The notes under the pieces: generated by a model
What the model saw: only the letters and a program-made list of their open reading frames with translations
Database searches by the model: none
What the model was told of the DNA's origin: nothing
Source: Candidatus Saganbacteria bacterium
GTDB lineage: Bacteria > Margulisbacteria > WOR-1 > XYC2-FULL-46-14 > XYC2-FULL-37-10
DNA length: 64,000 nt
Assembly (NCBI GenBank): GCA_016223245.1
Contig: JACRPL010000021.1
Span: 37,725-101,724, forward strand
Reading direction: 5' to 3'
Program-made: the position numbers and the translations under genes
Shown here: positions 246-29,297 of the stretch, piece after piece
Numbering within the stretch: position 1 is the stretch's first letter
How the letters are laid out: each line of letters starts with the position of its first letter

Positions 246-2645
246 TTGGAGAATGCCGTGAGTAATAAGTATATCCGGTTTTTTGATGACCTTAAGGCGG
301 CCGATGTCCCGATCGTCGGCGGGAAAAATGCCTCTCTTAGTGAAATGTATTCAAATCTCAAAGACCAAGGTATCCCTGTTCCCAATGGTTTCGCTACAAC
401 TTCCGAAGCTTATTGGCGATTTGTTGAAGAAAATCATATTAAAGAAAAATTTGCCGCACTCATAGCACAGTATCAAAAGAATCCAAAGACCCTAAGCAAA
501 GTCGGACTTGCTATCCGCGATCTATTTTTAGGATCAAAAATCCCTGACGAACTTAATGACGCAATTATTTCAAGTTATAGGGAACTTTCAAAATCTTATA
601 ACGTAAAAAATGCCGATGTGGCGGTCAGAAGCAGTGCGACAGCCGAAGACCTTCCTGATGCGAGCTTTGCAGGACAACAAGAAACTTTTTTAAATATCAC
701 ATCAGAAGAAGAGCTTTTGGATGCATGCAGACGATGCTACGCATCTTTGTTTACCGATAGGGCGATAGCCTACCGCGAAGAAAAAAAGTTCGACCATCTA
801 AAAGTCGCGCTTTCGATCGGCGTACAAAAAATGGTGAGGTCGGATCTCGCCGGCTCCGGCGTTATGTTTTCGCTTGATACCGATACCGGATTCCGTGATG
901 TTGTAATAATCAACGCATCGTGGGGACTGGGCGAGAATATCGTCCAAGGCACTGTCAATCCGGACGAATATATCCTCTTTAAGCCGCTTCTCGACAAAGA
1001 AAATTTTACTCCAATTTTGGAAAAAACAGTCGGCGCAAAAGAAAAGAAAATGATATATATGAAGAGCGGACCGAAAAAAACGAAAAACATCTTAACTACA
1101 ACAAAAGAACAACGATCTTATGTCCTAAATGATAAAGAAATACTCCAACTTGCCAAATGGGCTGTAATTATCGAAAAGCATTATGGCAAGCCAATGGATA
1201 TGGAATGGGCAAAGGACGGGAAGACCGGCGATCTATTTATTGTACAAGCGAGGCCAGAAACAGTCGAATCGCGAAAAGAAGCTTTCGCTTTTAAAGAGTT
1301 CAGACTTCTTGAAAAAGGAAAAGTTTTAATAGAGGGAATGGCTGTCGGGCAAGCAATAATATCAGGCAAAGCTCAAGTTATTAAGAACCCAAAAGATATC
1401 GGTAAATTTGAAGACGGGTCTATCCTAATAACCGAAATGACCGATCCTGATTGGGTCCCGATCATGAGAAAAGCCGCTGGTATTGTGACCGATCACGGCG
1501 GCAGAACTTCTCATGCGGCAATTGTGAGCCGAGAGCTCGGGATCCCGGCAATTGTAGGAACTGGTTTAGCTACGCAGAAACTTAAACATGGCCAAGAGAT
1601 CACGATCTCGTGCGCCGAGGGTGAGAAAGGTTTCGTGTATGAAGGTCTTCTAAAATTTGATCAGATCGATGTCGATCTGAAAAATCTTCCTAAGACCAAA
1701 ACGCAGATAATGATGAATATTGGCGACCCTGCGGCAGGATTCAGATGGTGGAGGCTTCCAACACAAGGGATCGGTCTTGCTCGAATGGAATTTATAATTA
1801 TCAATTCGATCAAGATCCATCCGATGGCTTTGGTAAAATTCAAACAGCTTAAAGATCTAAAAGCTAAAAAGAAAATTGGAAAGTTAACGGCTGGATATAA
1901 AGATAAAACGGAATTCTTTGTCGATAATCTTGCTCGCGGAATTTCGATGATCGCCGCATCGCAGTATCCGTATCCCGTAATTGTCAGGATGAGCGATTTT
2001 AAAACCAATGAATACGCAAATCTAATAGGCGGGGCCCAATTTGAATCCCATGAAGATAATCCGATGATCGGTTTTCGCGGAGCTTCCAGGTATTACAGCG
2101 AAAAGTACAAAGACGGCTTTGCGCTGGAATGCCGGGCTATCAAGCGTGTTCGAGACGAGATGGGGTTTGCAAATGTAGTCGTCATGATCCCATTTTGCCG
2201 CACAACCTCTGAAGCCGACAATGTCATTAAAGTTATGGAAGAGAACGGATTAAAGAGAGGGGAGAAAGGGCTGCAATTATATGTAATGGCCGAGATCCCT
2301 TCAAATATAATTCTTGCAGACCAATTCTCACAAAGGTTTGACGGATTTTCGATCGGGTCGAATGACCTAACGCAACTAACCCTTGGCATTGACCGCGATT
2401 CTGCGATCCTCGCAAAGCTTTTCGACGAGAGAAATGATGCCATAAAGAGATCGATCAAAAGCTTGATCGAAACAGCGCATAAATTCAATGTAAAGGTCGG
2501 TATATGCGGCCAAGCTCCAAGCGATTATCCCGATTTCGCGGAATTTCTTGTTGAATGCGGGATCGATTCGATGTCATTAAATCCCGATAGCGTAATTGAA
2601 ATTATCAAATCGGTCGCATTGGCCGAAAAAAAACTTACTATGTAG
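246..2645 (+). CDS. ppsA: Phosphoenolpyruvate synthase (pyruvate, water dikinase)
   Basis: 799-aa ORF with the full PpsA architecture: ATP-grasp N-domain, phospho-histidine swivel motif GGRTSHAAIVSRELGIPAIVG, and a PEP-utilising C-domain. TTG start at 246. Confidence 0.93.
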   Translation: MENAVSNKYIRFFDDLKAADVPIVGGKNASLSEMYSNLKDQGIPVPNGFATTSEAYWRFVEENHIKEKFAALIAQYQKNPKTLSKVGLAIRDLFLGSKIPDELNDAIISSYRELSKSYNVKNADVAVRSSATAEDLPDASFAGQQETFLNITSEEELLDACRRCYASLFTDRAIAYREEKKFDHLKVALSIGVQKMVRSDLAGSGVMFSLDTDTGFRDVVIINASWGLGENIVQGTVNPDEYILFKPLLDKENFTPILEKTVGAKEKKMIYMKSGPKKTKNILTTTKEQRSYVLNDKEILQLAKWAVIIEKHYGKPMDMEWAKDGKTGDLFIVQARPETVESRKEAFAFKEFRLLEKGKVLIEGMAVGQAIISGKAQVIKNPKDIGKFEDGSILITEMTDPDWVPIMRKAAGIVTDHGGRTSHAAIVSRELGIPAIVGTGLATQKLKHGQEITISCAEGEKGFVYEGLLKFDQIDVDLKNLPKTKTQIMMNIGDPAAGFRWWRLPTQGIGLARMEFIIINSIKIHPMALVKFKQLKDLKAKKKIGKLTAGYKDKTEFFVDNLARGISMIAASQYPYPVIVRMSDFKTNEYANLIGGAQFESHEDNPMIGFRGASRYYSEKYKDGFALECRAIKRVRDEMGFANVVVMIPFCRTTSEADNVIKVMEENGLKRGEKGLQLYVMAEIPSNIILADQFSQRFDGFSIGSNDLTQLTLGIDRDSAILAKLFDERNDAIKRSIKSLIETAHKFNVKVGICGQAPSDYPDFAEFLVECGIDSMSLNPDSVIEIIKSVALAEKKLTM

Positions 2646-7270: not shown

Positions 7271-7273
7271 AAA

Positions 7274-7305
7274 AATGACAAATGTCTAATGACAAATGTC
7301 AAATT
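7274..7305. repeat. Dispersed oligo-repeat, GACAAATGTCAAAT family (intergenic copy)
   Basis: aatgacaaatgtctaatgacaaatgtcaaatt, directly after the ahcY stop. Confidence 0.75.
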
Positions 7306-7323
7306 ATTGAATAAATTATATTA

Positions 7324-13085: not shown

Positions 13086-13952
13086 TTGAAAGTAATCGAT
13101 CTATTTAAGCCAGGCTATCAGACAATATCTTTCGAGTTCTTTCCGCCAAAAACCCTCGAACAAGAAGCAAATCTCTTTAAGGTTTTAGGCGAGCTTAAGA
13201 AATTCGATCCCGATTTTGTATCTGTAACTTATGGCGCAATGGGGACAACACGAGAGAAAACTTTTAAATGGGTAAAAATGATCAAAGAAGAATTTGGCAT
13301 TGAGCCCGTCGTCCACCTGACCTGCATTGCCGCCACAAAAGACTCGATTAAATCCCAGTTGGACGAATTATCCGCTATGGAAGTGTTTAATATCCTTGCT
13401 TTACGCGGTGATCCTCCAGAGGGTGACGATTCTTTTGAGCCGCCAAAGAACGGTTTTAAATATGCAAAAGATCTTGTTTTATTCATTAAAAATCATCACC
13501 CTGAGTTTTGTGTTGGTGTTGCCGGGTTTCCAGAGGGGCATATATCAACAAAAGATCTTACATTGGACATTAAATATCTAAAAGAAAAGATAGAAGCCGG
13601 CGCTCAATATATCGTCACCCAGATGTTTTTCGACAATAGATATTTCTTTGATTTTGTTGAACAATGCAAAAAAGCCGGTATTAATATCCCGATTGTCCCG
13701 GGAATTATGCCGATCACAAATTTAAAACAGGTAAAAAAGATCACAAGCATTTGCGGGGCGACTATTCCTCAAGAAGAATTAAATCAGTTGGAAGAATATG
13801 CGGATGACCAATGCGCCGTTGAAAAATTTGGGATCGATCGCGCGGTAAAGCAATGCAAAGAGCTGCTAGAATCAAAAGCTTGCGGTATTCATTTTTTTGT
13901 TATGAACCAATCAGGACCGATATCGAAAATAATTTCAAATCTTACTCGATAA
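13086..13952 (+). CDS. metF: Methylenetetrahydrofolate reductase
   Basis: ISFEFFPPKT, HLTC, LALRGDPP and the TIM-barrel MetF layout. TTG start. Confidence 0.88.
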   Translation: MKVIDLFKPGYQTISFEFFPPKTLEQEANLFKVLGELKKFDPDFVSVTYGAMGTTREKTFKWVKMIKEEFGIEPVVHLTCIAATKDSIKSQLDELSAMEVFNILALRGDPPEGDDSFEPPKNGFKYAKDLVLFIKNHHPEFCVGVAGFPEGHISTKDLTLDIKYLKEKIEAGAQYIVTQMFFDNRYFFDFVEQCKKAGINIPIVPGIMPITNLKQVKKITSICGATIPQEELNQLEEYADDQCAVEKFGIDRAVKQCKELLESKACGIHFFVMNQSGPISKIISNLTR

Positions 13953-16779
13953 ATTCCCTTAACTCTAAAATATATGGGCGTAATTTATTAAATGCAGCAA
14001 CTTCGATCTGTCTTATTCTTTCTCTTGTTAGACCAAGCATTTGACCGACTTCCTCGAACGTATGGTCGATATTTCCATTCAATCCAAATCTTTGTTCAAG
14101 CACAAATCTTTCTTTGCCCTTGAGCGATGTAACCAGTTCCTTTTTTAATGATTCACTTAACATCCTCTTCATTGTTTCAGCTTCAGGGTTTGGCGACGAT
14201 TGATCCGATACCCCACTTCCGAGTTCAGCATCTCCATCTAATTTGGGCGCATTTAAAGATAAAGTTTGTTGTGTTTGTTTTTTTATTCCTCTTAATTTTG
14301 CAAGAGGAATTTCGAGGTATGCCGCAATTTCCGACTCTTCCGGCTCCCGCTCGAAAGCGATCCGGAGTTCGCATTCCGCGCGATTTATTTTTTTCATGAT
14401 ATCTTGAGTATAGTTTGAAATCCATATCGTACGCCCTTGATTCCCAATTGCACGCAATATTTCTGCTTTGATCCAAATGCATCCATAATGGGCTAAAGTT
14501 CCTTTTTCCGGTTCGTACAATTCAACAGCCCTATATAGGCCAAGAATACCTTCTTGTACGAGGTCGGCAAAATCCAATCCTCTTCCAACATATTTCTTTG
14601 CCATCATGTAAACAAGTCTCATATTTTCGTTAACAGTGGCCCAATTTTTTCTGGAGAGGTCAGCGCTATTATCTACCGGCAGGTGCATTCGTTTTGTTGT
14701 ATTCCAATTTATTGAAGTCATTTCGTCTTCGGGGATCCCAAATTTATCGACCTTCATTCTTTTGAATATGGCCTCGTTCCCCGGAGTAGGGTGGCACAAG
14801 GCCCACCTTGTGAGATAGGATAAGTTCGGGTCGTTAAATAATACCTTTAAGGCCAGAAGCATTCTTTTTCCGGTGAATTTGTCAAAGTCGAGCAAGGAAG
14901 GCAGGAGCCTGAAAGCATTTTGGAAAAGATACGGATCGCTTCCGTAATATCCATGCGCCAATCCCGACAGAACTTCAAGGGCATAAGCAATGCTTGTCGA
15001 GTTGTGTGTTTCTTGATTGAAATACTGGGCAAGCGCCATTAAATTCTGTTCGCTTGTGTTGGACCTTGTTATGTTTTGGACGAGCCATTCATAGTATTCT
15101 TTTCTTTTTTTTAAGTGCGCTTCTCTTGTAAGGTCGGATGATTTTACTTCCATAGCTTTTTTCAATAGTTCAAAATCATAAGGATTCGCTCGATATGCTT
15201 CCGCGTATAATTCAAAAGCCTTATTAAAACCATCTGGATCAAGCAAACTTTTTCCCGCAGAATCAAAATGCACTGCCGCTTGTTTTGCTTTTTCACCCGA
15301 GATAGGCTTATCTACCGTTAGATCTTGTTCACCCGATCTTGCGCGAATGATAAGCTCGCACAATTCCCTTTCATCTCGGCTCATCCTCGCCGCGTCAGTA
15401 AAAAATAGCACTTCTTTCCCATCAAAAGCAAGAAGGGATAACTGCAATGGCTTCATTTCCCATGGGCACCTGTGCGTCACAAACATTAATACATCGCCGA
15501 ATTTGATCTTTTGTACGCTGTTCGCGACACTTGTACTGAATTGTTCGATCAGACGGTATCCGTGCAATTTATCTTTTTCAAGAAATGAGAAAGTAGTGTT
15601 TGCCAGTGTGAATTTTTCCCATGACCATTCCCAATTCAATACGAAAGGCAAAACGGTTCTGTTGTTTTTTTTATCTGTGTGGATAAGTGCGCAAACCTTA
15701 TTTCCAATCGCTTCAACTTCAAGCATAACGCCTGCTTGCAAGCCAAGTTTTTTGGCTATTTCTTCGCCAATTCGGATGACAGGTTTTTTACCGAAGCAGA
15801 TATAGTAGCTAGTTTTTCCCTTTACTGAGTCAGCGCAAACTTTAGTAAATATCTTTTCTTCAGCGTCTTTTAACTTATGTTTTTCTATTTGCTCTCCGCC
15901 AATCAAGATTGTAGTTTTTCCTTCTTTGTCATGTTTCCTTGTAATTGATAAAGGATTTTTACTGCTGTTTTCAGCAAATATCTGGTAGACGGAGCCATCT
16001 TTTATTCTTATCTTGAATACTTCGTTTTCTTTTCTTCGCCTCCCGGCAAAGAAAATCTTTATGCCAAATATTTCCGATGAAAATATCGAATCTTTTTTAT
16101 TTGAAACGACAAAATAATTTGTAATTCCTAGGTTTATAAAATAGAAGAGGAAGTTTTTTAGGTCGAAGTTAAGGTCGCCAATAAAACTATTATCTTTGGC
16201 ATTAAACATGAGCAGAATTATGTCTTCTCCGATTCTTTGCGGGGCAAGGAGAACTTCCGTTTTTTCGCGGATTCCCGTCGGATATGGGATCAGTTTGCCT
16301 TCGTGTTCAAACATAACTATCCCCAATTCGTCGGATTCGGTCCGAAGAAGTCCGGAAAATCCTATGCCAAGTTTTGCTTCATCCATGAAAGTCGTAAAAA
16401 AGTTATTTCGATCAGTTATTTCAGGCCTAGTTTTAAGTATTGCCCCATCATAGCCAAGAGCTACCTCCCAGAAGTTTATTCCTGGTTTTTTCTGTCCAAT
16501 CCCATTTACCGTATCTACAGGGATTCCGTTAACAACGAGAGGGCTCCCGTCGATCCTTAAAAATGCTCCATGGCGGTCAACAGGGATTGCAAGCTTTGCT
16601 TCGCCTGTTTTGTCAATAAACATTAAACCTGAACCAGAAGAAAATGAAACATTGCAGCCACCGCGCGCCAACATTTTGTTTGTCCCATTAGACCTCGAAA
16701 ATGAGAATTTCCAACCATTTACTCTAACTGCGGTTAACTGCGGGCTTGTATGAGGGGCTCTTGATCTTACAAGTTCCAT
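13942..16779 (-). CDS. Giant sigma-70-family protein: ~690-aa uncharacterised N-terminal region fused to sigma regions 2-4
   Basis: Single uninterrupted 945-aa ORF. The C-terminus has region 2 (DLVQEGILGLYRAVELYEPEKG...WIKAEILRAI), region 3, and region 4 HTH (TFEEVGQMLGLTRERIRQIEVAAFNKLR). The N-terminus has no family I recognise. Confidence 0.7.
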   Translation of the reverse strand: MELVRSRAPHTSPQLTAVRVNGWKFSFSRSNGTNKMLARGGCNVSFSSGSGLMFIDKTGEAKLAIPVDRHGAFLRIDGSPLVVNGIPVDTVNGIGQKKPGINFWEVALGYDGAILKTRPEITDRNNFFTTFMDEAKLGIGFSGLLRTESDELGIVMFEHEGKLIPYPTGIREKTEVLLAPQRIGEDIILLMFNAKDNSFIGDLNFDLKNFLFYFINLGITNYFVVSNKKDSIFSSEIFGIKIFFAGRRRKENEVFKIRIKDGSVYQIFAENSSKNPLSITRKHDKEGKTTILIGGEQIEKHKLKDAEEKIFTKVCADSVKGKTSYYICFGKKPVIRIGEEIAKKLGLQAGVMLEVEAIGNKVCALIHTDKKNNRTVLPFVLNWEWSWEKFTLANTTFSFLEKDKLHGYRLIEQFSTSVANSVQKIKFGDVLMFVTHRCPWEMKPLQLSLLAFDGKEVLFFTDAARMSRDERELCELIIRARSGEQDLTVDKPISGEKAKQAAVHFDSAGKSLLDPDGFNKAFELYAEAYRANPYDFELLKKAMEVKSSDLTREAHLKKRKEYYEWLVQNITRSNTSEQNLMALAQYFNQETHNSTSIAYALEVLSGLAHGYYGSDPYLFQNAFRLLPSLLDFDKFTGKRMLLALKVLFNDPNLSYLTRWALCHPTPGNEAIFKRMKVDKFGIPEDEMTSINWNTTKRMHLPVDNSADLSRKNWATVNENMRLVYMMAKKYVGRGLDFADLVQEGILGLYRAVELYEPEKGTLAHYGCIWIKAEILRAIGNQGRTIWISNYTQDIMKKINRAECELRIAFEREPEESEIAAYLEIPLAKLRGIKKQTQQTLSLNAPKLDGDAELGSGVSDQSSPNPEAETMKRMLSESLKKELVTSLKGKERFVLEQRFGLNGNIDHTFEEVGQMLGLTRERIRQIEVAAFNKLRPYILELREFIE

Positions 16780-16780
16780 G

Positions 16781-16791
16781 TATATATATCG
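16781..16791 (-). promoter_or_regulatory. CGATATATATA box immediately 5' of the giant-sigma ATG
   Basis: Minus strand reads tttCGATATATATAcATG. The same CGATATATAT core occurs at 18550, 29231 and 30848 in the sense orientation of the downstream genes. Confidence 0.5.
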
Positions 16792-16814
16792 AAAGAATTA
16801 GGGGCAGATTTCAG

Positions 16815-18188
16815 TTATCTTCCGCCGACAACGATCTGGGGAATTCTAATAGTAGGCTGGGCATCGGACACTGGTACATGGTCATATTTGCCGCAGATGC
16901 CGACCTGGAAGCCAAGGTCGGATCCTACCATATCAATAGTTTCTAAAACTCTAGGCCCGTTCCCTGTAAGAATTGCACCACGAACTGGATGCGTAACTTT
17001 TCCGTTCTCGATAAGATAGCCCTCATTTATTTCAAAAACAAAATCGCCATTGGCGACATTTACTTCTCCGCCGCCTATTCGAATAACTAATATTCCATTC
17101 TTTACGGAATCAATTATCTCTTGAGGATCGGAATGGCCTGAAGCGATCATTGTATTTGTCATGCGAGGAACAGGCTTTGTCCTGAATGATTCCCGGCGCC
17201 CATTTCCCGATGATTTTATTCCAAGTTCCCTTGCCGTATACCAATCGCTTAGAAATCCTTTTAGAATTCCATTCTCTATTAGAATGGTCTTTTGTGCAGG
17301 GGTTCCTTCATCATCAAATGCAGCTGATCCAAATTTTTGAGGAAGGGTAGTGTCGTCAATTACAGTTATAAGCGGGCTTGCGACGAATTTTCCAAGCTTC
17401 CCGTTGAAAATAGATGTTCCTTTCATAATAAAATCCGCTTCAAGCGAATGTCCGCATGCTTCATGAATTAATGTTCCGCCGGCTTCAGATGATAATACCG
17501 CCATCATTTTGCCTGATGGAGCATGAGGCGCATCAAGCATAAGCACAGCTCTTTTTGCAGCTTTACCCGCCATTTCAGCCGGAGGATAAATATCAAATAG
17601 TTCAAAACCGACAGATCCTCCAGGAGCTTCATATCCGGTTTGGAGCACTCCGTTCTTTTCGGCTATGACATTAATAAAATATCTTGAGCGGATGCGATTG
17701 TCTTCTATATATATGCCTTCAGAATTAGCGATCGTCACCGCTTGGTTTGTGTCGGAATATCTAACTGTTACTTGTTTTATCTTTGGGCCGAACGATCTTG
17801 CGGTTTTATTTAATATATCGACCATGCCGATCTTTTCATCTAGTACGATCAGGTTAGGCCTTTTAAGGATTGAACTCATTTGTTCAGGGATATTGGGAAC
17901 AATATCTTTTATTTTTTTTGGTTCGCCTTTGATCGATTGAGCGATCTTCTGCGCGGCGGATATTAGCCCCTCATAACTTGTATCAGTTGATGCTATGTAT
18001 GAAACTTCTTTATTTGAAATAAGGCGGATACCTGCGCCAATATCCGTGCCTGAGATTATCTTTTCTATTTTATTATCTTCGCAGGAAACGGTTGTCGCGT
18101 TCGATTCTTCAATAAAGACCTCGGCGAGATCCCCGCCGTTTTTGAGGGCGGTAGATAGAATTTCTTCAAGATTATTGAGAGAAAGCAT
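16815..18188 (-). CDS. tldD: Metalloprotease TldD
   Basis: 457 aa with the TldD/PmbA fold signature and HEACGHSLEADF metal site. Confidence 0.88.
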   Translation of the reverse strand: MLSLNNLEEILSTALKNGGDLAEVFIEESNATTVSCEDNKIEKIISGTDIGAGIRLISNKEVSYIASTDTSYEGLISAAQKIAQSIKGEPKKIKDIVPNIPEQMSSILKRPNLIVLDEKIGMVDILNKTARSFGPKIKQVTVRYSDTNQAVTIANSEGIYIEDNRIRSRYFINVIAEKNGVLQTGYEAPGGSVGFELFDIYPPAEMAGKAAKRAVLMLDAPHAPSGKMMAVLSSEAGGTLIHEACGHSLEADFIMKGTSIFNGKLGKFVASPLITVIDDTTLPQKFGSAAFDDEGTPAQKTILIENGILKGFLSDWYTARELGIKSSGNGRRESFRTKPVPRMTNTMIASGHSDPQEIIDSVKNGILVIRIGGGEVNVANGDFVFEINEGYLIENGKVTHPVRGAILTGNGPRVLETIDMVGSDLGFQVGICGKYDHVPVSDAQPTIRIPQIVVGGR

Positions 18189-18532
18189 CAGTTAGAGGTT
18201 AAGACTTTTTCTTCTATATGTTTGATTCTTTCTTCATGGTTCTCAAGCTTGACTTCTTGTCGGCGGGATTGAGCATATGACATCTTTTGTTCAATGGACA
18301 GATCTTCAAGTTTTTTCATTATTTTATCTTGGCTTGTGAGGATATCGTTTTTTAATTCTGATTTTAAGCTATTAAGACCGGTTTGAAGTTCCTGTTTTGT
18401 GGCAAATATTGCAGAAAACTTAATAATAATGTTTTCAATGTCTTTTTTTGTGATTACCATATTAAGAATATTATATATATCCAGCTTATTAATTGCAACA
18501 TGAAATTTTAATTCTTCTTTCGCCTGCTGCAA
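18188..18532 (-). CDS. Hypothetical coiled-coil protein
   Basis: 114 aa, heptad-rich (ELQTGLNSLKSELKNDILTSQDKIMKKLEDL). Its TGA shares one base with the tldD ATG. Confidence 0.4.
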   Translation of the reverse strand: MQQAKEELKFHVAINKLDIYNILNMVITKKDIENIIIKFSAIFATKQELQTGLNSLKSELKNDILTSQDKIMKKLEDLSIEQKMSYAQSRRQEVKLENHEERIKHIEEKVLTSN

Positions 18533-18549
18533 TTATCTAGTGTTTTTGA

Positions 18550-18618
18550 CGATATATATGCGGGCCAAAAAGAAAAAGATAATCCATGGGAAAATGGGTT
18601 GATTTTTCAGAGGTCTCA
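18550..18618 (+). promoter_or_regulatory. Conserved leader element, copy X (upstream of the 252-aa orphan gene)
   Basis: cGATATATATGCGGGCCAAAAAGAAAAAGATAATCCATGGGAAAATGGGTTGATTTTTCAGAGGTCTCA. 67 of 68 nt are identical to the reverse complement of 29163-29230. Confidence 0.8.
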
Positions 18619-18634
18619 GTAAGAGATAAACAAA

Positions 18635-19393
18635 TTGATCAATACGAATTTATATATTAAACCCGGGCAGTTAAGACCCTTAGGGCTTGGAAAAGTTGAA
18701 CAGAGAATGGTACTAAATGTTGTAAATGGAATTGGGCGCCTCGAAAGCCGTTTTCTTTTGCTTTTCCATATATTTTATTTCAGCAAGGGCAAAATGGATG
18801 TTTGCCAGCATGCAGCTTTCGCGTTATCGCGAGTGCTTGGAGCAAGATATGATCTTCCGGTGTCCAACACTTTGAAGCCAAATATTGATCATATAGAAAT
18901 AGCAGTCGGGGTATTTGCTCCGCAGGATCTTTCGAGATCCTTTCATCAGACATTTTTAAAAGTGTTTCTTAAAGGCAAGACATTTTACCTCGATCCAACC
19001 CTTAAGTATTTAGAGGAGGATGTCCCATCGATCATTTTGCGCGAATATCCGGCTGGCGAATTCGACAGCCGCCTTCAAAATGAATTCATGATAGAACCGT
19101 ACGCTCCAAACCATCGTGCTTATGCGCACCGTGCCATAATTGCAAGCCAGTACCTTGATCTCGGAAGCCGTGCAAAATACGTTGAGGCATCGTTACGATT
19201 GCTGCATGATCCAAAACTGGTCGTTGATGTTGACCAACGCGAAGCGATATATTTCAGCCAGGATGACTGGACTAGACTTGATAGGATAATAAGAGCTATT
19301 GAACCAAAGGGAGGCCTTCCTTCTATTGAAACACAAGTTGAACAATTATCTGGTGATGAACTTTTGCGCTGGAGTGTATTTGGCGGCATTTAG
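18635..19393 (+). CDS. Hypothetical protein, possible transglutaminase-like/papain-like Cys-His-Asp fold
   Basis: 252 aa. Ordered candidate triad: C in KMDVCQHAAFALSRVLG, H in IDHIEIAVGVF, D in TFYLDPT. Start uncertain (TTG 18635 or ATG 18707). Confidence 0.45.
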   Translation: MINTNLYIKPGQLRPLGLGKVEQRMVLNVVNGIGRLESRFLLLFHIFYFSKGKMDVCQHAAFALSRVLGARYDLPVSNTLKPNIDHIEIAVGVFAPQDLSRSFHQTFLKVFLKGKTFYLDPTLKYLEEDVPSIILREYPAGEFDSRLQNEFMIEPYAPNHRAYAHRAIIASQYLDLGSRAKYVEASLRLLHDPKLVVDVDQREAIYFSQDDWTRLDRIIRAIEPKGGLPSIETQVEQLSGDELLRWSVFGGI

Positions 19394-19399
19394 TCCAGC

Positions 19400-22180
19400 T
19401 CACTTCGCTTCCGCCCAGTTCTCCCCAACTCCAATATCAATTTTTAGAGGGACAGAAAGCTTTAAGGCATTCTGCATTTCATCTTGGATGATCTTTTTAA
19501 CTTTATCGACTTCAGAATTCGGGACTTCGAAGACCAATTCGTCGTGGACCTGCAGGATCATTTGACATTTGACACTTGACATTTGACATTTGCGATGGAT
19601 ATTTACCATCGCTAACTTTATCATATCGGCTGCGGTTCCTTGGACTGGAGTATTTATAGCCGTTCTCTCGGCAAAACCTCTCATTCCTTGATTGGGAGAA
19701 TTAATATCGGGTAGGGGGCGTTTTCGCCCAAGCATCGTTGTTACAAATCCTGTATCTTTAGCATCTTTAATAGTTTTTTCTATAAAAGCCTTTATGCCGG
19801 GATATCTTTTGAAATATTTTTCAATAAATTGCTCGGCTTCCGTTCTTTTGATCTTTAAACTTTTAGCCAAGCCAAAACCGGATATCCCGTAAATGATCCC
19901 AAAATTAACTGTTTTAGCGCTTGATCTCATTTCTTTTGTAACTTTATCAAGAGGTACATTGAAGATATCGGCAGCCGTTGCAGTATGGATATCTTCATCC
20001 AATTTGAAAGCCTCAATAAATTTTTCATCTTGTGAAAGATGCGCGAGAACCCTTAATTCAATTTGAGAATAATCGGCCGCAATTATCTTATATCCTTTAT
20101 TTTGCGGGACAAATGCTTCTCTTACTCTTTTTCCAAGTTCGGATTTTACGGGAATATTCTGCATATTTGGATTTGAGCTCGATAACCTGCCTGTCGCAGT
20201 GATCGTTTGGTTGAAATTTGCATGAACGCGTCCGGTTTCTTTATTTATTAGTTCCGGCAAAGTATCAACGTAGGTTGATTTGAGTTTGTTCAATCCTCGA
20301 TATTCCAGAAGTTTTTCAGCGATCTCAAATTGGCCGGACAATTCTTCCAATACTTCCGCATCTGTTGAAGCGCCTGTTTTTGTTTTCTTAATTATGGGCA
20401 GCTTTAGTTTCTCAAATAAAACTACAGCCAATTGCTTTGGAGAGTTCAAATTGAAAACTTCTCCGCATATGGCAAAGATGTGCCGCTCAAGATCTTTCAT
20501 TGCAAGTTCGATCTCTTGGCTAAGTTTCTTTAAGTATTTGGCATCGATGAAAACACCTGTCTCTTCCATTTTGATCAACACATCAAGCAATGGCATCTCA
20601 ATTTTGTTAAAGACATCCTCCATATTTTCCGACTTGAGAGTTTTCTCAAAGACTTCTTTTAACCCGCGAGTCACATCGGCATCCGAACATGCGTAATCTT
20701 TCGCGACATCTATCGGAACTGTTGCGAAGTTGCCTTCAGACCCAAGTTCATCGAAGTTTATCATTTCTGTTCGGCCAAGATACTGCGCGCCGACTTTCTT
20801 TAAACTATACCTGCCGATAGTCGGGTCGATCAAATATGCGGCTACCATGGTGTCGAAATAGGGTGACGATACTTCAATATCGTATTTTTTCATCACCTCG
20901 ACGTCGTACTTTAAATTATGTCCGATCTTGAGCTTGGTTTTATCTTCAAAAATCGGTTTTAGCGCAGTTAATGCCATTTTAATATTAACTTGCGGCTGAA
21001 CGCCGCGGTTAATGCTTTTGGAACCGCGAGCCGTGCCTACCGGCAGGCAGGGTTCACTCGCAGGTTCCACCTTGTGCCCAAAAGGCAAATAAAAAGCTTC
21101 GCTTTCGTCAATTGAAAAAGATATACCTATAAGATTTGCTTTGAAAGTATTGAGGCTGTCTGTCTCGGTATCAAAGGCAAAAGACTCGCATTCTTTTAAT
21201 TTATGGATTAGGTTTTGATAATGATTATCATTATCAATTAGCTTGAAGTTGAATTTCGAAATTTCTTTCCTTTTTGTCTCAACCTTGTCGAATAGATTGG
21301 GGGTTTGATGCTCCTTGTATTTGTTTATCAGAGTCTTGAATTCCATTCGTTCGAAGAATTTAATGACTTTTTCCCAGTCCGGGGTTTGAGTTGATGTGAA
21401 ATCGGTTTCGAGTGGTACGTCAGTTATAATCGTTACCAGCATTTTGCTCAAATGCGCTTTTTCTTGTTCGTTCAATAATGTTTCGCGAAGCTTTGGCTTT
21501 TCGATATCTTTGGCATGAGCTAATAAATTATCAAGTGTATGATATTTTTTTAATAGTTCAGCGGCTGTTTTATCTCCGATCCCGGGCATTCCCGGGACAT
21601 TGTCAGATGTATCGCCTTTTAAAGCTTTAAAATCAATTAATTGGTTTGGTTTGAGGCCATATCTTTCCTCAACTGCTTTTTCGTCATAGATAACTATGTC
21701 GGAGATCCCTTTCCTGGTAGTCATTACTTTTATTTTCTCTGTTACAAGCTGTAATGCGTCGCTGTCGCCTGTTACTATTTCTACTTCAAAGCCTTCTTTT
21801 TCTGCCTTCTTGGCCAAAGTTCCTATGAGATCGTCGGCTTCAAAGCCTACTAATTCATAGATCGGGATATTTAGGTCTTCGACCAGTTCTTTTATATACG
21901 GAAATTGAGGATGGAGGGTGGGAGGCGCTTTATCTCTTGTTCCCTTGTATTCTTTGTATTTTATATGGCGGAAGGTCGGTTCTTTCCTGTCGAAAGCGAC
22001 TGCAATATAATCCGGTTTTTCCTCGACAAGCTTTAGGATCATCGAAGTGAAGCCATATATGGCATTAGTTACTATGCCTTCGGAGTTCTTCATGGTGTCT
22101 GGAAGCGCATAAAAAGCGCGGTAGGCAAGCGAGTTGCCGTCGATCAGGATTGCTTTAGGGTTGTATAAAGATTTGACCAA
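19400..22180 (-). CDS. polA: DNA polymerase I
   Basis: 926 aa with 5'-nuclease (ILIDGNSLAYRAFYA), 3'-5' exonuclease and polymerase domains (RRSAKTVNFGIIYG-type motif B, QVHDELVFE motif C). The TTG start abuts the HEPN stop. Confidence 0.95.
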   Translation of the reverse strand: MVKSLYNPKAILIDGNSLAYRAFYALPDTMKNSEGIVTNAIYGFTSMILKLVEEKPDYIAVAFDRKEPTFRHIKYKEYKGTRDKAPPTLHPQFPYIKELVEDLNIPIYELVGFEADDLIGTLAKKAEKEGFEVEIVTGDSDALQLVTEKIKVMTTRKGISDIVIYDEKAVEERYGLKPNQLIDFKALKGDTSDNVPGMPGIGDKTAAELLKKYHTLDNLLAHAKDIEKPKLRETLLNEQEKAHLSKMLVTIITDVPLETDFTSTQTPDWEKVIKFFERMEFKTLINKYKEHQTPNLFDKVETKRKEISKFNFKLIDNDNHYQNLIHKLKECESFAFDTETDSLNTFKANLIGISFSIDESEAFYLPFGHKVEPASEPCLPVGTARGSKSINRGVQPQVNIKMALTALKPIFEDKTKLKIGHNLKYDVEVMKKYDIEVSSPYFDTMVAAYLIDPTIGRYSLKKVGAQYLGRTEMINFDELGSEGNFATVPIDVAKDYACSDADVTRGLKEVFEKTLKSENMEDVFNKIEMPLLDVLIKMEETGVFIDAKYLKKLSQEIELAMKDLERHIFAICGEVFNLNSPKQLAVVLFEKLKLPIIKKTKTGASTDAEVLEELSGQFEIAEKLLEYRGLNKLKSTYVDTLPELINKETGRVHANFNQTITATGRLSSSNPNMQNIPVKSELGKRVREAFVPQNKGYKIIAADYSQIELRVLAHLSQDEKFIEAFKLDEDIHTATAADIFNVPLDKVTKEMRSSAKTVNFGIIYGISGFGLAKSLKIKRTEAEQFIEKYFKRYPGIKAFIEKTIKDAKDTGFVTTMLGRKRPLPDINSPNQGMRGFAERTAINTPVQGTAADMIKLAMVNIHRKCQMSSVKCQMILQVHDELVFEVPNSEVDKVKKIIQDEMQNALKLSVPLKIDIGVGENWAEAK
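19559..19592. repeat. Dispersed oligo-repeat, GACAAATGTCAAAT family, in frame inside polA
   Basis: catttgacatttgacacttgacatttgacatttg encodes (minus strand) KCQMSSVKCQM, directly before the conserved ILQVHDELVFE motif. Confidence 0.8.
21020..21068. repeat. CCTGCC/GGCAGG-type palindromic element in frame inside polA
   Basis: ggaaccgcgag-ccg-tgcct-accggc-aggca-gggttca-ctcgc-a-ggttcc, three nested stems. Encodes VEPASEPCLPVGTARGSKS between the exonuclease motifs. Confidence 0.7.
22095..22159. repeat. 65-bp direct repeat, copy 1 (codons 2-23 of the original polA, now in the live gene)
   Basis: 60 of 65 nt are identical to 23100-23164. Confidence 0.9.
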
Positions 22181-22582
22181 TTATAAAAACTCTTTAATTC
22201 GTTTTTTTAATAACAGGGCTAATTTCTTTGTTGTCTTAATAACTTTTTTTAATTCTTCCGAGGTAATGTCTTCTCCTGGATACCTAAAACCAACGGCATA
22301 GGGATTTAATATCTTGAATTCAGAATATATTCCATACAAAAATGGGTCTTTTGGCTGGAGCAGTTTTAATAATTCAATTAGGTCATGTGTTTTAGGGAAT
22401 AATATCTCATGGCTGAGAAGTAATGTTTTTAGGTATTTTTCGATTGCTTGCTGGCAATGGAAAGCAATGATATAGAATGTTTTCTTTTTGCTTTTGTTTT
22501 TATTTAATGTTAACGCGGCTTCTAAGTCTCCCTCAGCCTTATCCTCCCACTCAATAACCAAGGATTTACTTGGATGAATCAT
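22181..22582 (-). CDS. HEPN-domain toxin (HepT-like) of an MNT/HEPN module
   Basis: 133 aa all-helical protein with QQAIEKYLK, KTHDL and RYPG motifs typical of HEPN. Overlaps the MNT gene by 17 nt. Confidence 0.75.
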   Translation of the reverse strand: MIHPSKSLVIEWEDKAEGDLEAALTLNKNKSKKKTFYIIAFHCQQAIEKYLKTLLLSHEILFPKTHDLIELLKLLQPKDPFLYGIYSEFKILNPYAVGFRYPGEDITSEELKKVIKTTKKLALLLKKRIKEFL

Positions 22583-22931
22583 ATAAGACTTTGCCCTTAT
22601 TTATTATTTCATGATAAAAAGGATCTCCCATTTTAAGTCGTTTTTTTACTTCACTAGGAGTTTTGATTAAGATGTCCATTGGAAAAAGATGCTCGATGTG
22701 TCGAGTTGCCCATGAATAACGCTTCATACCTTTCAACCTTGTATCTTTTATGAACAATAAATCAACATCGCTATCTTTGTTGGGATTTCCATAAGCATAT
22801 GATCCAAAAAGAATAACCTTTTCCGGTTTTATACTCTCCGCCGCAGTTTTAATTACTTTTGTTAGCTGCCGCTTAAAAAGTCGTTGCTTTGTCATAGTTG
22901 TTTGCCTTGTGAATATTATAGCATGAAACAT
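22566..22931 (-). CDS. Minimal nucleotidyltransferase antitoxin (MntA-like)
   Basis: GSYAYGNPNKDSDVDLLF is the classic GSx10DxD MNT motif. The likely true start is Met13 (22895), downstream of a TGcTATAAT box. Confidence 0.8.
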   Translation of the reverse strand: MFHAIIFTRQTTMTKQRLFKRQLTKVIKTAAESIKPEKVILFGSYAYGNPNKDSDVDLLFIKDTRLKGMKRYSWATRHIEHLFPMDILIKTPSEVKKRLKMGDPFYHEIINKGKVLYDSSK

Positions 22932-23025: not shown

Positions 23026-23151
23026 ATGTCAGAAATTTTAGGTTCCAGTTTTCACAAACCTGATCCGAGGAAATCGGCCAACTTTAAAGAGACTGCTGTG
23101 TGTCTGGAAGCGCGTAAAAAGCGAGATAGGCAAGCGAGTTGCCGTCGATAA
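23026..23151 (+). CDS. Small ORF (41 aa) with a consensus Shine-Dalgarno, antisense to the polA fossil
   Basis: AGGAGGTG lies 7 nt before the ATG. Encodes MSEILGSSFHKPDPRKSANFKETAVCLEARKKRDRQASCRR. Hand-translated. Coding status uncertain. Confidence 0.25.
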   Translation: MSEILGSSFHKPDPRKSANFKETAVCLEARKKRDRQASCRR

Positions 23152-23167
23152 GAATTGCTTTAGGCAT
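23084..23167 (-). pseudogene. polA: Fossil 5' end of polA (27 codons then stop), left behind by the cassette insertion
   Basis: Minus strand ATG CCT AAA GCA ATT... gives MPKAILIDGNSLAYLAFYALPDTQQSL*. Located 25 nt downstream of the tsf stop. Confidence 0.7.
23100..23164. repeat. 65-bp direct repeat, copy 2 (in the fossil polA start)
   Basis: Five differences from 22095-22159. Four are synonymous in the polA frame. Confidence 0.9.
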
Positions 23168-25229: not shown

Positions 25230-25832
25230 TTATTTAACTAAAGCCATTCTGGACCAAAATGCAACGGCTCGCGCATATGCTTTAAGATCAATTGGCACAG
25301 GATTCGCAACTCCTCCAAAGTCTATTCCCAAACCATTTCTTAAAATCGTAATCGGCAGCATCGGTTCTTCTTTGCAGCCTGTAATGCCATTAATTGAAAT
25401 GATTCCCCAATTGGAATCAGCTGGATCAATTGCCTCGCCTTCAGTTTTAAGTTCTTCACTTGTATAAAGAATGATATCTAAATACGGCGCCTTGGGAGGG
25501 ACAACATCAGCTGAATCGAACCATCTTGTAAGTACTGGAAGCTCTTCCGTCTTGCGCGCAACATAACCCGTTTTAATAAATTTTTCATTGGCAGCCGTTA
25601 TTTCAACGACCCCGGCTCTTGCATCCGTAAAGTTCTCAAGAAATAAATGCGCGCAAAAAGAGACATAACCTGGCGTTAGCGATTTTCCTTGAGCCAATTG
25701 GTTCGCTTTATTCGTAAAAGCATTAGAATCTATATTACCAATTTTTGTTCCAGGAAATTCCGGGTTAAAATGCCTTCCTGCAGCAAACTGGGTCATTCCA
25801 ATTTTTATCATATTTCCAGCGGCAACATCCAT
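25230..25832 (-). CDS. Hypothetical 200-aa protein (DUF3228-like, from memory), translationally coupled to the 1091-aa gene
   Basis: ATG lies 2 nt after the upstream stop, with AGGAGG embedded in the upstream gene's 3' end. No catalytic motif recognised. Confidence 0.5.
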   Translation of the reverse strand: MDVAAGNMIKIGMTQFAAGRHFNPEFPGTKIGNIDSNAFTNKANQLAQGKSLTPGYVSFCAHLFLENFTDARAGVVEITAANEKFIKTGYVARKTEELPVLTRWFDSADVVPPKAPYLDIILYTSEELKTEGEAIDPADSNWGIISINGITGCKEEPMLPITILRNGLGIDFGGVANPVPIDLKAYARAVAFWSRMALVK

Positions 25833-25834
25833 TT

Positions 25835-28800
25835 TTATCTCCTCCTTGATAATTGCGACAACAAGTATGTTCCCATTTGTTCTTTTGCCCTAAGGATCCT
25901 AGGGTTCGTCCCTAGTTCTGCATCAGCCAACGTTTCCCCTTCTTTCCCTGGGATATCCGAAAAATAACCCATCATTGAAACTGACAAAGATGGCTTAGCG
26001 CCAAGACCTCTAACAAGCGGCCCCATTTCAAGTTCAACAGAAGTTGCCTTTCTTCCCATAAGGTCCGCAAGAAAAGCATCATGTTCTTGTAAAGGAGAAT
26101 CTACATAGCCCGCATGTGTTGTCAGGACAAATCTTATGGCACTATCTCCTGCTTTACTATCTGTGCCTCCAGCCAAATCAACAACTTCTTGCCTTTGAGC
26201 TAAAGCATAGGAAACAACATCATTGACAAAGCCATTAGCCTCTCCTTTTTCTTCAAGCATCGTACTTGGGACAAATAGATCCCCGACATTTATTTCTGTT
26301 TGATTTTGGCCCGCTCCGGCGATAAAACCGCCATTTCCAAAAAACGTCACATTTTCGACATTCTCTTCGGCAACTGCTTGCCCTAAATAACCTGATAAGC
26401 TCCCAAAAGGAATTGTTACCATAAGGAATGGCGCTTTCCCCGGCAATCTTATTAAACTTGCCTGGTAAACATCATTAGGCACGCGGGCTTTCATGCTTTC
26501 CGGTTTCAACTTCTCTGGCAATATAAAAGGAGGGTTTCTATTCATCCCAAGCTTCGCATAAACGCCTTCAAGCTTGTCTCTAAGCGCCAATAGCCTTGCA
26601 GCAAGGTTAGGATTAAGCATTATTTCTTCAGGATCTAGTGAAAAAGCCGCCGTCAAATTCGTTTTATCATCAAAAATTTGTCCAATGATTTTTGGCGTAA
26701 GCACTCTGATCTCAGCTTGAATATTTGGGATAGCTTGTTCTATCTCTTCATTTTGAGCAGTTTCATAGCTTTCAATTAAAATAATACCAAATTCCGCAAG
26801 AAGTTTTAAGCATTGTTTTATTCTCTTAATAAATACATTTTTCATCTCTTGCGCCGGTATTTTTGGATTGTTTTTTGTAAACGAGCCATAATCAAGGTTT
26901 GCCGCCAATTCCTCCAATTTCATATTAACTGCTCGGCTTAGATCTGCCTCAACTTCATTAAGCAATTCTTCGCCTTTCAACCCTGGTTTAAGGAAAGCAG
27001 CTAATACTCTTGCGGCATTTATCCTCTCTGCTAAAATATAGCTTATCGTTCCCCCTGGACCAACAACTACCATTTTTGGGAATTTGCCATTGTTTTTGCT
27101 TTTGGTTGCGGCAATCAAATTTTTGGCGTCCACCATATAATCTTCAGAATAGACATGATGGTATATTTTTTCAACGGATAATCCCGCATAAGTTAGATAC
27201 AGCCTCATATGCATCAATTTTGTTTCGCCAAGAATATTAACAACAATAAATTGATTAGTCCCTTTTACCCTATACCAATGCTGCTTAACGCCGTCTTCTG
27301 TTCTTTCTACCGCAAGCCGCTCCAATTGTGAACGTTTATCGGTGATATATTGCATGCTTGTAGAAAGCGGGCCATGATGCAATTCAATTGAAACAAATTT
27401 ACCTTCATCCAATAGGTCCAATGCGGCTTTTGGGATTCTGGGGATAAGATATTCAGGCAAATTCAATGAATGCCTGCGATACATTGCGACCCCTTGGCGC
27501 ACGTTTTCGATAACAGGCATTCTGCCGATAGCAGATACAATATCGTCAATTGAAAGCGATGTTTTTCTTTGTTCTGCCGGAAGCTCTTTTGGGAACATAG
27601 GAGATCCTCCCGCCTTTGAAAATCCGCCCCAACCCTTTCGCAGCTCCGAAAAGCCCAGTGTTGCTCTCTTTTTCTTTTCCTCTTGGCCTAACTTTTCCCA
27701 TAAATTTGTAAGGTCTATCTCGACTTCAAGCGAAGAATTCGGGTCGATCCCGACCATATATTCATATCCCATATTGCATTCAGCGTCATATGAGATGGCA
27801 AGATGTATCTGGTCCTTCGCGGCCCTTTTTCGGTTATACCCTTCCATGAACGCATATATCCCCCTGCGACTGACAACTTTTTTCCATTCAACATCCCCTC
27901 TCCAAGGATGTTTCACAATAATGGTATTTCCTCGAATTTCAACGCTTGTGTTGTTTGAATCATTTATCGCTTGAGCTAAATATTCGACTTCTCTTTCCAA
28001 TACTTCCCGCGCTCCTCTGTAAATCGCCAAATAACCATTAGGGAGGGTCGCTTCATGTTCTAGGCTATCAAGTATGCGGCAAAGATCTGAAAATACATTA
28101 TCTCTTAACACGGGGAATGCGGCTGCGCAACTTGTATGATAATCTTTGATCTCGAGGAATTTACCCCTTTCCAAAGAATACATTTCTTCAAGCAATAGCA
28201 TAAGTTTTCCGCCATCGGAACGGACGGATCCTTTCTGAAGATCAGATAGGTCCGAAGCTTCTAGTAATATTTTTTTCTGCCCTTCGCTTAAATAAAGCGC
28301 CAATCCAGGATTACATAACAGCCACTGTTCAATAAACGCATAACAATCGGAATAAACTTTAATTTTTCGGCCGTTTAAGGATTCCCTTTGAAGTGTTTCA
28401 AGTTTTTCGGTTGCTTCCATTATTTCTTTTGTTTGCGTAGTATCTTTATGCGGCAGGAAAAGGAAATCCTTTAATTCTGCCAATCGCTTCTGAATTGTTT
28501 CTCCGTTCATCCCGCGATTCTTTAATATAGCAGCAACCGGTTCACCAATATTTTTATCAAAATCAATATTATATCGTAAGGTAACCATAGACATTAATAT
28601 CCCTTGTTCAAGATTATCCGCAATTATTGGGACTAATTTATCAATATCGCTTGTGTCTACAAATAAAGCTTCTGGTTTTGAGTCAATGATCGTGCGCTGT
28701 CCGGCAAGAGATTGAGAAGGTTGGCTAACAGCCATTGCGCATGCAGCAGGGTTCGAAACGCCTGAAAGATCCAATGAATATACTGCTCCACAGAAAAATA

Positions 28801-29162: not shown

Positions 29163-29231
29163 TGAGACCTCTGAAAAATCAACCCATTTTCCCATGGATT
29201 ATCTTTTTCTCTTTGGCCCGCATATATATCG
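29163..29231 (-). promoter_or_regulatory. Conserved leader element, copy Y (upstream of the 1091-aa gene)
   Basis: The reverse complement matches 18551-18618 at 67 of 68 nt. Weaker similarity continues about 15 nt further toward the gene. Confidence 0.8.
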
Positions 29232-29263
29232 ACAGCCCCCACCGAAGATTTCACTATGGAACA

Positions 29264-29297
29264 AACTATTTCCCAACTATTTTCCCAACTATTTCAA
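29264..29297. repeat. Three tandem 11-12-nt direct repeats (AACTATTT(T)CCC)
   Basis: aactatttccc aactattttccc aactatttcaa. They straddle the stop of the ARH gene, upstream of leader copy Y. A related ccaaccaactatttt occurs at 30875-30889. Confidence 0.65.

Follow-up and report, generated by a model that had tools for sequence, protein, structure and literature searches.

The locus described here raises two questions: whether a single gene truly joins a large uncharacterized protein region to a sigma factor, and what that region might do in such a protein. In the 64,000-nucleotide (nt) stretch of Candidatus Saganbacteria DNA that was analyzed as a whole (the window), the minus strand carries a 945-amino-acid (aa) open reading frame (ORF) at positions 13942-16779, stop codon included; coordinates are positions in the window and residue numbers refer to the 945-aa protein throughout. 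An earlier reading made from the sequence without database searches (the sequence-only reading) had described this ORF as the fusion of a large uncharacterized region to a sigma-70-family factor, and both the ORF and the fusion proved to be as it had claimed. The protein consists of a constant folded module (the N-module) joined through a flexible linker to a C-terminal part that can be exchanged, here a competent-looking alternative sigma factor, and we consider it very probable that the gene is real and the fusion genuine.

The fusion gene and its sigma domain

The ORF was recovered in an independent assembly: the Logan assembly of run SRR12113407 contained 5.5 kb, including the entire ORF, that was base-identical to the window (contig SRR12113407_1174420), so that the assembly error about which the sequence-only reading had been concerned was not found. 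The same reading had proposed a search for the fusion in related genomes, and a second organism (ENA ERZ26051151, locus L002) was found to carry a collinear homolog of residues 202-916 at 29-37% identity that crosses the module-sigma junction, with a weaker profile match extending back to approximately residue 110. One ORF of this locus (P0012) runs in a single frame from the tail of the N-module directly into sigma regions 2, 3, and 4. Because the independent assembly was base-identical and the L002 ORF crosses the same junction, an assembly chimera was excluded. Family homology covers the entire frame of the ORF, and residues 600-730 offer no in-frame start accompanied by a Shine-Dalgarno-like site. 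These results largely rule out a join of two genes created by misassembly or by an overlooked frameshift, as well as a sigma factor of normal length made from an internal start, and we regard such an artefact as extremely improbable.

The arrangement of the gene also agreed with the earlier description. The stop codon of tldD lies at 16815 and the ATG of the sigma-fusion gene at 16779, leaving a gap of 35 nt on the same strand, and a coupled gene of 114 aa overlaps the tldD start by 1 nt. The GC content of the sigma-fusion gene equals that of the neighboring genes. Judged from its sequence, the 945-aa protein is soluble, with no hydrophobic segment and a KD19 hydropathy maximum of 1.15.

Sigma regions 2, 3, and 4 were found at the C-terminus, as had been claimed, and all three exceeded their Pfam gathering scores within residues 716-934. 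Region 2 (PF04542; residues 716-783, positions 14431-14634, minus strand) scored 54.9 bits against a gathering cut-off of 24, region 3 (PF04539; residues 796-867, 14179-14394, minus strand) scored 45.7 bits against 25.3, and region 4 (PF04545; residues 885-934, 13978-14127, minus strand), with its helix-turn-helix LTRERIRQIE, scored 47.3 bits against 24.1. Region 3 is present as in sigma-70 groups 1-3, and assignment to the extracytoplasmic function (ECF, group 4) sigmas was rejected on this ground. Regions 1.1 (PF03979) and 1.2 (PF00140) were not detected in the 945-aa protein (Pfam, E <= 1); PF00140 was present in nearly all of the best 120 sigma homologs, none of which is long. The closest sigma matches were primary sigmas (from Chloroflexota, Saccharibacteria, and others) at 41-44% identity. 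The best NCBIfam models were of the RpoD type, but they reached only about half of their cut-offs and aligned only from residue ~714: the RpoD equivalog models TIGR02393 and NF004208 scored 184.7 against 354 and 182.9 against 555, respectively. The FliA/WhiG, SigB/F/G, and RpoH cut-offs were missed as well (83.8 versus 189.6, 80.7 versus 234, and 89.9 versus 323, respectively), and only the generic superfamily model TIGR02937 cleared its cut-off. Thus, the sigma domain fits no curated NCBIfam subfamily.

Alignment with primary sigmas showed that the core-binding motifs of regions 2.1-2.2 are kept, including DLVQEGILGL, and that the helix-turn-helix of region 4.2 is identical. The stretch that reads the -10 element, in contrast, is CIWIKAEILR where primary sigmas have TWWIRQAITR, and region 3.0 has WISNYT in place of RIPVHM. 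In Escherichia coli sigma70, melting and reading of the -10 and extended -10 elements depend on positions W433, Q437, T440, and H455; the equivalents of Trp433, Gln437, and Thr440 (E. coli numbering) are replaced in the window sigma. With regions 1.1 and 1.2 missing, 41-44% identity to primary sigmas, and substitutions at the -10-reading residues, the sigma part is, by its sequence, an RpoD-like but divergent alternative sigma and not a primary one. It looks competent: core binding would be normal, and the predicted specificity combines a TTGACA-like -35 preference, which would be retained because region 4.2 is unchanged, with a -10 specificity unlike that of the housekeeping sigma. In sequence the domain is closest to the primary and group 2 sigmas (RpoD/SigA, RpoS) over regions 2-4, and it departs from them in its N-terminal, -10-reading, and cut-off characteristics.

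A primary (housekeeping) sigma that happens to bear an unusually large N-terminal extension would account for primary RpoD proteins being the best sequence matches and for the unaltered region 4.2. We nevertheless consider it very unlikely, since it is at odds with the features on which the alternative assignment is based and with scores of about half the RpoD cut-offs, and since, in addition, ~40 relatives have no copy of the gene in the syntenic slot and the module to which the sigma is joined belongs to an extremely rare family.

The N-terminal module and its family

Residues 1 to ~700 gave no match in Pfam (E <= 1), NCBIfam, PHROGs, or PADLOC, and the earlier view that the N-terminal extension corresponds to no region 1.1 and to no known non-conserved region was borne out. 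An exhaustive phmmer (HMMER) search with residues 1-705 against 1.84 billion cluster representatives yielded 12 related clusters, with E <= 1e-10 for 9 of the 13 listed matches (query included); the named relatives are all called "hypothetical protein". Word-indexed searches, whether with the whole protein or with the family alignment, returned only the query, and the family came to light only through the exhaustive HMMER search. A scan of 185,579 species genomes for the N-module was without match, which places both species and gene outside the GTDB representatives. Phage and plasmid collections likewise held no match to the N-module, and no paralog of it was found in the window. The relatives probably all come from Margulisbacteria-type genomes, and the family appears to be very small and restricted to the Margulisbacteria/Saganbacteria phylum. 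The window itself fits this range: its LysS is 63-73% identical to those of Candidatus Saganbacteria, Margulisiibacteriota, and WOR-1 metagenome-assembled genomes (MAGs) and at most 53% identical to those of other phyla.

Four family members are full length (P0002, 770 aa; P0004, 811 aa; P0005, 960 aa; P0007, 756 aa), P0006 is a short form of 506 aa, and P0011 is a fragment ended by the contig end; one MAG (GCA_043816125.1) holds two module paralogs. A domain scan of P0002-P0007 and P0011 found no sigma domain. In the family alignment, conserved motifs span the whole module, and in the non-sigma members the module closes with the conserved end ..RW.L.HP..G..LF.RR....P.....I.W, followed by a Pro/Lys-rich linker and a weakly conserved helical tail of ~70 aa that is longer in P0005. 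Identity of the window module was 38% to the non-sigma member P0003, compared with 30-38% to the pieces of the sigma-fused L002 protein. From these alignments, the module is constant and the C-terminal end exchangeable, being mostly the ~70-aa helical tail and, in two lineages, a sigma factor. The window and L002 sigma domains share a one-residue deletion and an ELY(E/Q)PEKG motif.

AlphaFold2, run with the family alignment, gave a mean predicted local distance difference test score (pLDDT) of 78.8 over residues 1-705 and of 79.6 over the whole protein. The N-terminal segment (residues 1-109; 16453-16779, minus strand, as are all module features) was modeled with low confidence (pLDDT mostly <65) and contains the conserved beta-hairpin motif NGWKFSF (residues 21-27). 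It is followed by a beta-hairpin-rich domain without a known fold match (residues 110-294; 15898-16452; pLDDT about 85-95) and by a second beta-rich domain (residues 309-462; 15394-15855) that carries the family motifs RIPFIL.NW, GYRVLEQ, and PWE. An all-alpha domain (residues 468-680; 14740-15378; pLDDT mostly >90) is the most conserved and most confidently modeled part of the N-module, with motifs that include HN.TS.AY.LE.L.GLA and L.Y..RW.L.HP. The linker to region 2 (residues 681-711; 14647-14739) was modeled without regular secondary structure (pLDDT about 50-70, falling below 50 at residues 704-711) and is predicted to be flexible; it occupies the position that is Pro/Lys-rich in the non-sigma relatives. 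The sigma part was modeled as helical, with region 3.2 disordered as usual. Foldseek matched the full-length model to sigma70/sigmaA chains at E about 1e-13 by way of the sigma part; the alignment with E. coli sigma70 ran over ~500 columns at a TM score of about 0.13-0.24, which is uninformative on resemblance to region 1.2 or the non-conserved region. For the N-module, Foldseek found nothing below E = 0.01 in PDB and BFVD, the top matches being beta-propeller, MORN, and OspA-like noise, and a PDB sequence-profile search with the whole N-module was without match. Sigma factors with extra domains are already known; the module itself represents an undescribed family without recognizable fold relatives.

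Two short segments of the module had been singled out in the sequence-only reading, one as AbrB/SpoVT-type and one as tetratricopeptide repeat (TPR)-like. The first corresponds to a beta-alpha-beta element within the second beta-rich domain (residues 331-366, KKPVIRIGEEIAKKLGLQAGVMLEVEAIGNKVCALI; 15682-15789) that resembles half of an AbrB/MazE swapped-hairpin or double-psi barrel, modeled by AlphaFold2 as strand 334-337, helix 339-344, and strands 352-358 and 361-368. Searches with the models that define AbrB/MazE/SpoVT membership (PF04014, PF14250, and TIGR01439) gave matches below threshold in every case. Among the sub-threshold Pfam matches, MazE_antitoxin was seen in three of nine family segments (best E = 0.0016), CDC48_N reached E = 1.5e-4, and AbrB-like E = 0.042; the window's own segment matched CDC48_N only, at E = 0.12. 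The homolog P0004 gave sub-threshold NCBIfam matches to an AbrB-family model (E = 0.0023) and to FwdD (E = 8e-5), and a PDB profile search with the segment recovered the Mo-binding double-psi barrel of Nap (E = 0.0078) along with designed double-psi barrel proteins and MazE (E = 0.3-0.5; about 0.3-0.45 for MazE). The sub-threshold matches of residues 331-366 and their counterparts all fall within the cradle-loop barrel group, so that the suggested resemblance has coherent but weak support, every match being below threshold. The element and its counterparts appear to share with AbrB/MazE/SpoVT proteins and double-psi barrels a beta-alpha-beta unit of the G-L-x-x-G-D-x-L-x-V type; unlike in AbrB/MazE/SpoVT, a single half-barrel element per chain was detected, placed inside a larger beta domain and not in a small DNA-binding dimer. 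As for the TPR-like stretch, the domain is confidently helical and includes one TPR-like helix pair near residue 519, but no TPR model reached threshold: none matched the window protein (Pfam, E <= 1), and the single match in the family was TPR_11 in P0005 (E = 0.008; 16.3 bits against a cut-off of 26.8).

How the module and the sigma domain may work together

The simplest interpretation of the fusion is that the N-module is the input or control domain and the sigma the output of a one-polypeptide, self-regulated sigma factor, a proposal whose chances of being right or wrong we judge to be about equal. The N-module would bind a ligand, a partner, or itself, self-pairing perhaps occurring through the single AbrB/double-psi-barrel-like half element, and this binding would decide whether the attached sigma joins core RNA polymerase. 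The sigma would then direct transcription from promoters whose -10 element departs from that of the housekeeping set, while a TTGACA-like -35 element could still be read by region 4.2. To our knowledge, built-in control domains occur almost only among ECF sigmas, and the extensions are small. The best functional analogy is to the ECF sigmas with fused regulatory extensions ("one-component" sigmas), for example ECF41 and ECF42 with C-terminal and ECF36 with N-terminal extensions (reviewed in PMC8999054): as in these, the extra domain lies on the same polypeptide and no anti-sigma gene was recognized adjacent. The ECF extensions, however, either are small and in most cases C-terminal or consist of anti-sigma-like segments that span the membrane (PMC8999054), and ECF sigmas possess only regions 2 and 4, whereas the window protein is RpoD-like, has region 3, and carries an N-terminal soluble extension of ~700 aa of unknown fold.

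Several observations weigh against the module being a control domain, or limit what the family can say about it. No ligand-binding or enzymatic signature was found in the N-module, no neighbor gene is conserved between family loci, and control of the sigma by the module is argued from architecture and analogy; a separate primary rpoD in the genome was assumed. The L002 copy is split at three frameshifts of one base each, two of which fall in base runs, on a contig labeled "2x", and these could be sequencing errors or could reflect recent decay to a pseudogene. Moreover, the window and L002 sigma domains are at least as far from each other (31% identity, 86 bits) as from primary sigmas (91-98 bits), so that the fusion may have arisen once or twice; in either case the C-terminal end behaves as an exchangeable part.

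The main alternative is a Rosetta-stone or delivery role, in which the module is a transcription- or RNA-polymerase-associated factor or scaffold and the sigma brings it to polymerase or promoters. That the module mostly occurs without sigma and with its own small tail, that one MAG has two paralogs, and that the sigma fusion is seen in two lineages would all suit such a role; the module has no similarity to any known polymerase-binding protein, however, and no conserved neighborhood with transcription genes, and we rate the role as unlikely, though still deserving of consideration. We think it somewhat less likely again that the protein is a pro-sigma, a special case of the control-domain proposal, put forward in the sequence-only reading, in which the N-module silences the sigma until proteolytic cleavage of the linker frees a sigma of ~240 aa. 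Bacillus pro-sigma-E and pro-sigma-K carry propeptides of ~20-30 residues that are removed by dedicated proteases. The window protein is like these in having an N-terminal extension before region 2 that could in principle keep the sigma inactive, the linker 681-711 is predicted to be flexible, and a metalloprotease gene, tldD, adjoins, as lon and hrcA adjoin other family members. Unlike a propeptide, however, the extension is a folded multidomain module of ~700 aa that also occurs in proteins lacking a sigma domain. Neither a cleavage motif nor a dedicated protease was identified, and the position of tldD is coincidental.

The evidence on tldD comes from the order coaX-lysS-metF> <tldD ... <polA, which is kept in ~40 relatives. 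In most relatives with both genes in the fetched locus, metF and tldD abut, whereas in the window the 2.8-kb sigma-fusion gene sits between them. No homolog of the fusion was found in the relatives' loci, one of which (L012) has a partial non-sigma family member, and no other member of the module family adjoins tldD. The metF/tldD slot is variable (13952-16815 in the window, compared with 12397-14688 in L006, 12334 onward in L039, and the corresponding slots of L019 and L024): it holds a 763-aa gene in L006, with an HD-type motif and RelA/SpoT-like by eye, without a domain search, and a 678-aa Ala-rich orphan in L039. Because the slot is variable, adjacency to tldD carries no functional message, and the hint of a functional link in the sequence-only reading gives way before a tldD that keeps its place in ~40 relatives without the gene and family members that lie elsewhere. 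TldD as the processing protease was rejected, the adjacency not being conserved. Three of seven family loci adjoin proteostasis genes (tig-clpP-lon at L086-L089, next to P0006; hrcA at L005, next to P0004; and tldD in the window), numbers too small to judge.

A sigma of the MzaA type, from the MZA anti-phage defense system, would likewise combine a long N-terminal part with C-terminal sigma regions: in MzaA (NF041931, PDLC02203) the C-terminal ~230 residues are RpoD-like regions 2-4 after a large non-sigma part (profile length 726), and its models were among the sigma-family matches of the window protein (NCBIfam, 164.3 bits; PADLOC, 94 bits). The N-terminal parts do not align, however; only the sigma part does, at profile positions 480-702 and in the PADLOC match alike, and the NCBIfam score is far below the cut-off of 800. 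None of the three neighbors tested for mzaB-E partners (tldD, the 114-aa gene, and the 252-aa gene described below) had a PADLOC match, and the absence of the module from phage and plasmid collections also speaks against a defense-system sigma, which we consider highly improbable. Searches of the literature on MZA and on Margulisbacteria sigma factors found nothing relevant.

Promoter motif, neighboring genes, and implications

The sequence-only reading had noted that the 5' end of the sigma-fusion gene shares a CGATATATAT box with orphan genes at 18.6, 29.1, and 30.8 kb. Four copies were indeed present at these places, compared with 0.16 expected by chance, and all four fit TG(A/C)AAT-N17-GATATA, so that the box is the -10 half of a bipartite promoter-like motif. 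At the sigma-fusion gene the motif reads TGAAAT-N17-GATATA(TAT) (16782-16813, minus strand), with GATATA ending 5 nt before the ATG at 16779; the further window copies lie at 18528-18559 (plus strand), 29222-29253 (minus), and 30839-30870 (minus), and the window rpsB promoter region resembles a degenerate copy of the same geometry. Counts of the strict pattern TGAAAT-N17-GATA[TA]A, with expectations from shuffles, were 29 in the 627 kb made up by the window and the Margulisbacteria/Saganbacteria loci (0.3 expected), none in 619 kb of loci from other phyla (0.1 expected), and 5 in 69 kb of module-family loci (0.1 expected). The motif lies directly upstream of non-sigma family genes, with GATA[TA]A-ATG distances of 9, 6, and 10 nt in L004, L005, and L086, respectively, and unrelated genes in many relatives also have it upstream; it occurs in L002-L006, L011, L015, L021, L026, L032, L033, L035, L036, L038, L039, L082, and L086. 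The tie to the three orphan genes is thus not a private mark, the motif being phylum-wide, and an autoregulated regulon of the sigma fusion marked by the CGATATATAT box was rejected for this reason and because the motif also precedes non-sigma family genes. The motif most likely belongs to a phylum-conserved sigma, and its occurrence at the family loci suggests that all such loci come from the Margulisbacteria/Saganbacteria phylum.

No in-frame start other than M1 was found upstream of residue 36, and conservation of residues ~13-27 (..VNGWKFSF) extends to P0005, P0013, and the lengthened L004 ORF. Because of these two features and the motif 5 nt before the ATG, M1 is most likely the translation start and the mRNA would be leaderless or nearly so. 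Across the loci the motif often lies 5-10 nt from the ATG, which suggests leaderless mRNAs. A 72-nt inverted duplicate (97% identity; 18547-18618 and 29163-29234), consisting of the promoter box and a 59-nt leader, is common to a 252-aa orphan (18635-19393, plus strand) and to an operon of a 1091-aa orphan and a DUF3228 gene (25230-29110, minus strand); neither the 252-aa nor the 1091-aa orphan had a homolog in any fetched locus.

A gene encoding HEAT repeats and an ADP-ribosylglycohydrolase (29289-30824, minus strand) is also preceded by the promoter motif. Locus L002 carries a 37%-identical homolog behind the motif (534-2023, minus strand), at a distance of 1.6 kb from the one further family member fused to a sigma, and no such gene was seen in the six non-sigma family loci. 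Because both sigma-fused loci carry it, a link of the sigma fusion to ADP-ribosylation is possible, and a functional link between the fusion and the HEAT/ADP-ribosylglycohydrolase gene is possible from two cases only.

Other features of the window lie farther from the fusion gene. The tldD-polA interval (16815-19400) is a second variable slot, which holds the divergent 252-aa orphan together with a 114-aa coiled-coil-like gene in the window, ~2 kb of other sequence in several relatives, and nothing in L025, where the two genes abut. A 65-nt direct repeat (92% identity; 22095-22159 and 23100-23164) flanks a HEPN gene (22181-22582) and a nucleotidyltransferase gene (22566-22931); the upstream copy is a dead remnant of the polA N-terminus (MPKAILIDGNSLAY... 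and then a stop) and the downstream copy is the present polA 5' end, so that the pair looks like a toxin-antitoxin-type cassette inserted at the polA start with duplication of the first ~24 codons. Runs of GTCAAAT/ATTTGAC-type heptamers were found at 7273-7307, 19538-19591, and 47264-47316, and one of them, which falls within the 3' portion of polA, codes for a repeated KCQM segment.

A recent preprint reports that promoter prediction is often incomplete for Margulisbacteria, and a sharply conserved phylum-specific motif would aid gene-start annotation and promoter prediction in Margulisbacteria/Saganbacteria genomes. If the N-module does control the sigma, the case would show that an RpoD-like sigma possessing regions 2, 3, and 4 can be coupled directly to a soluble module of large size. 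More broadly, and with considerable doubt on our part, the module may define a class of modular one-component regulators, undescribed so far and restricted to Margulisbacteria, whose outputs can be exchanged and include an RpoD-derived sigma with region 3; the window protein would then be the first non-ECF "one-component sigma", with a large cytoplasmic sensor hard-wired to promoter selection, and a link to a reversible ADP-ribosylation cycle is possible. The domain fusion points to a link with transcription, and with it an unannotated family in a poorly known sister phylum of the Cyanobacteria gains its first functional handle.

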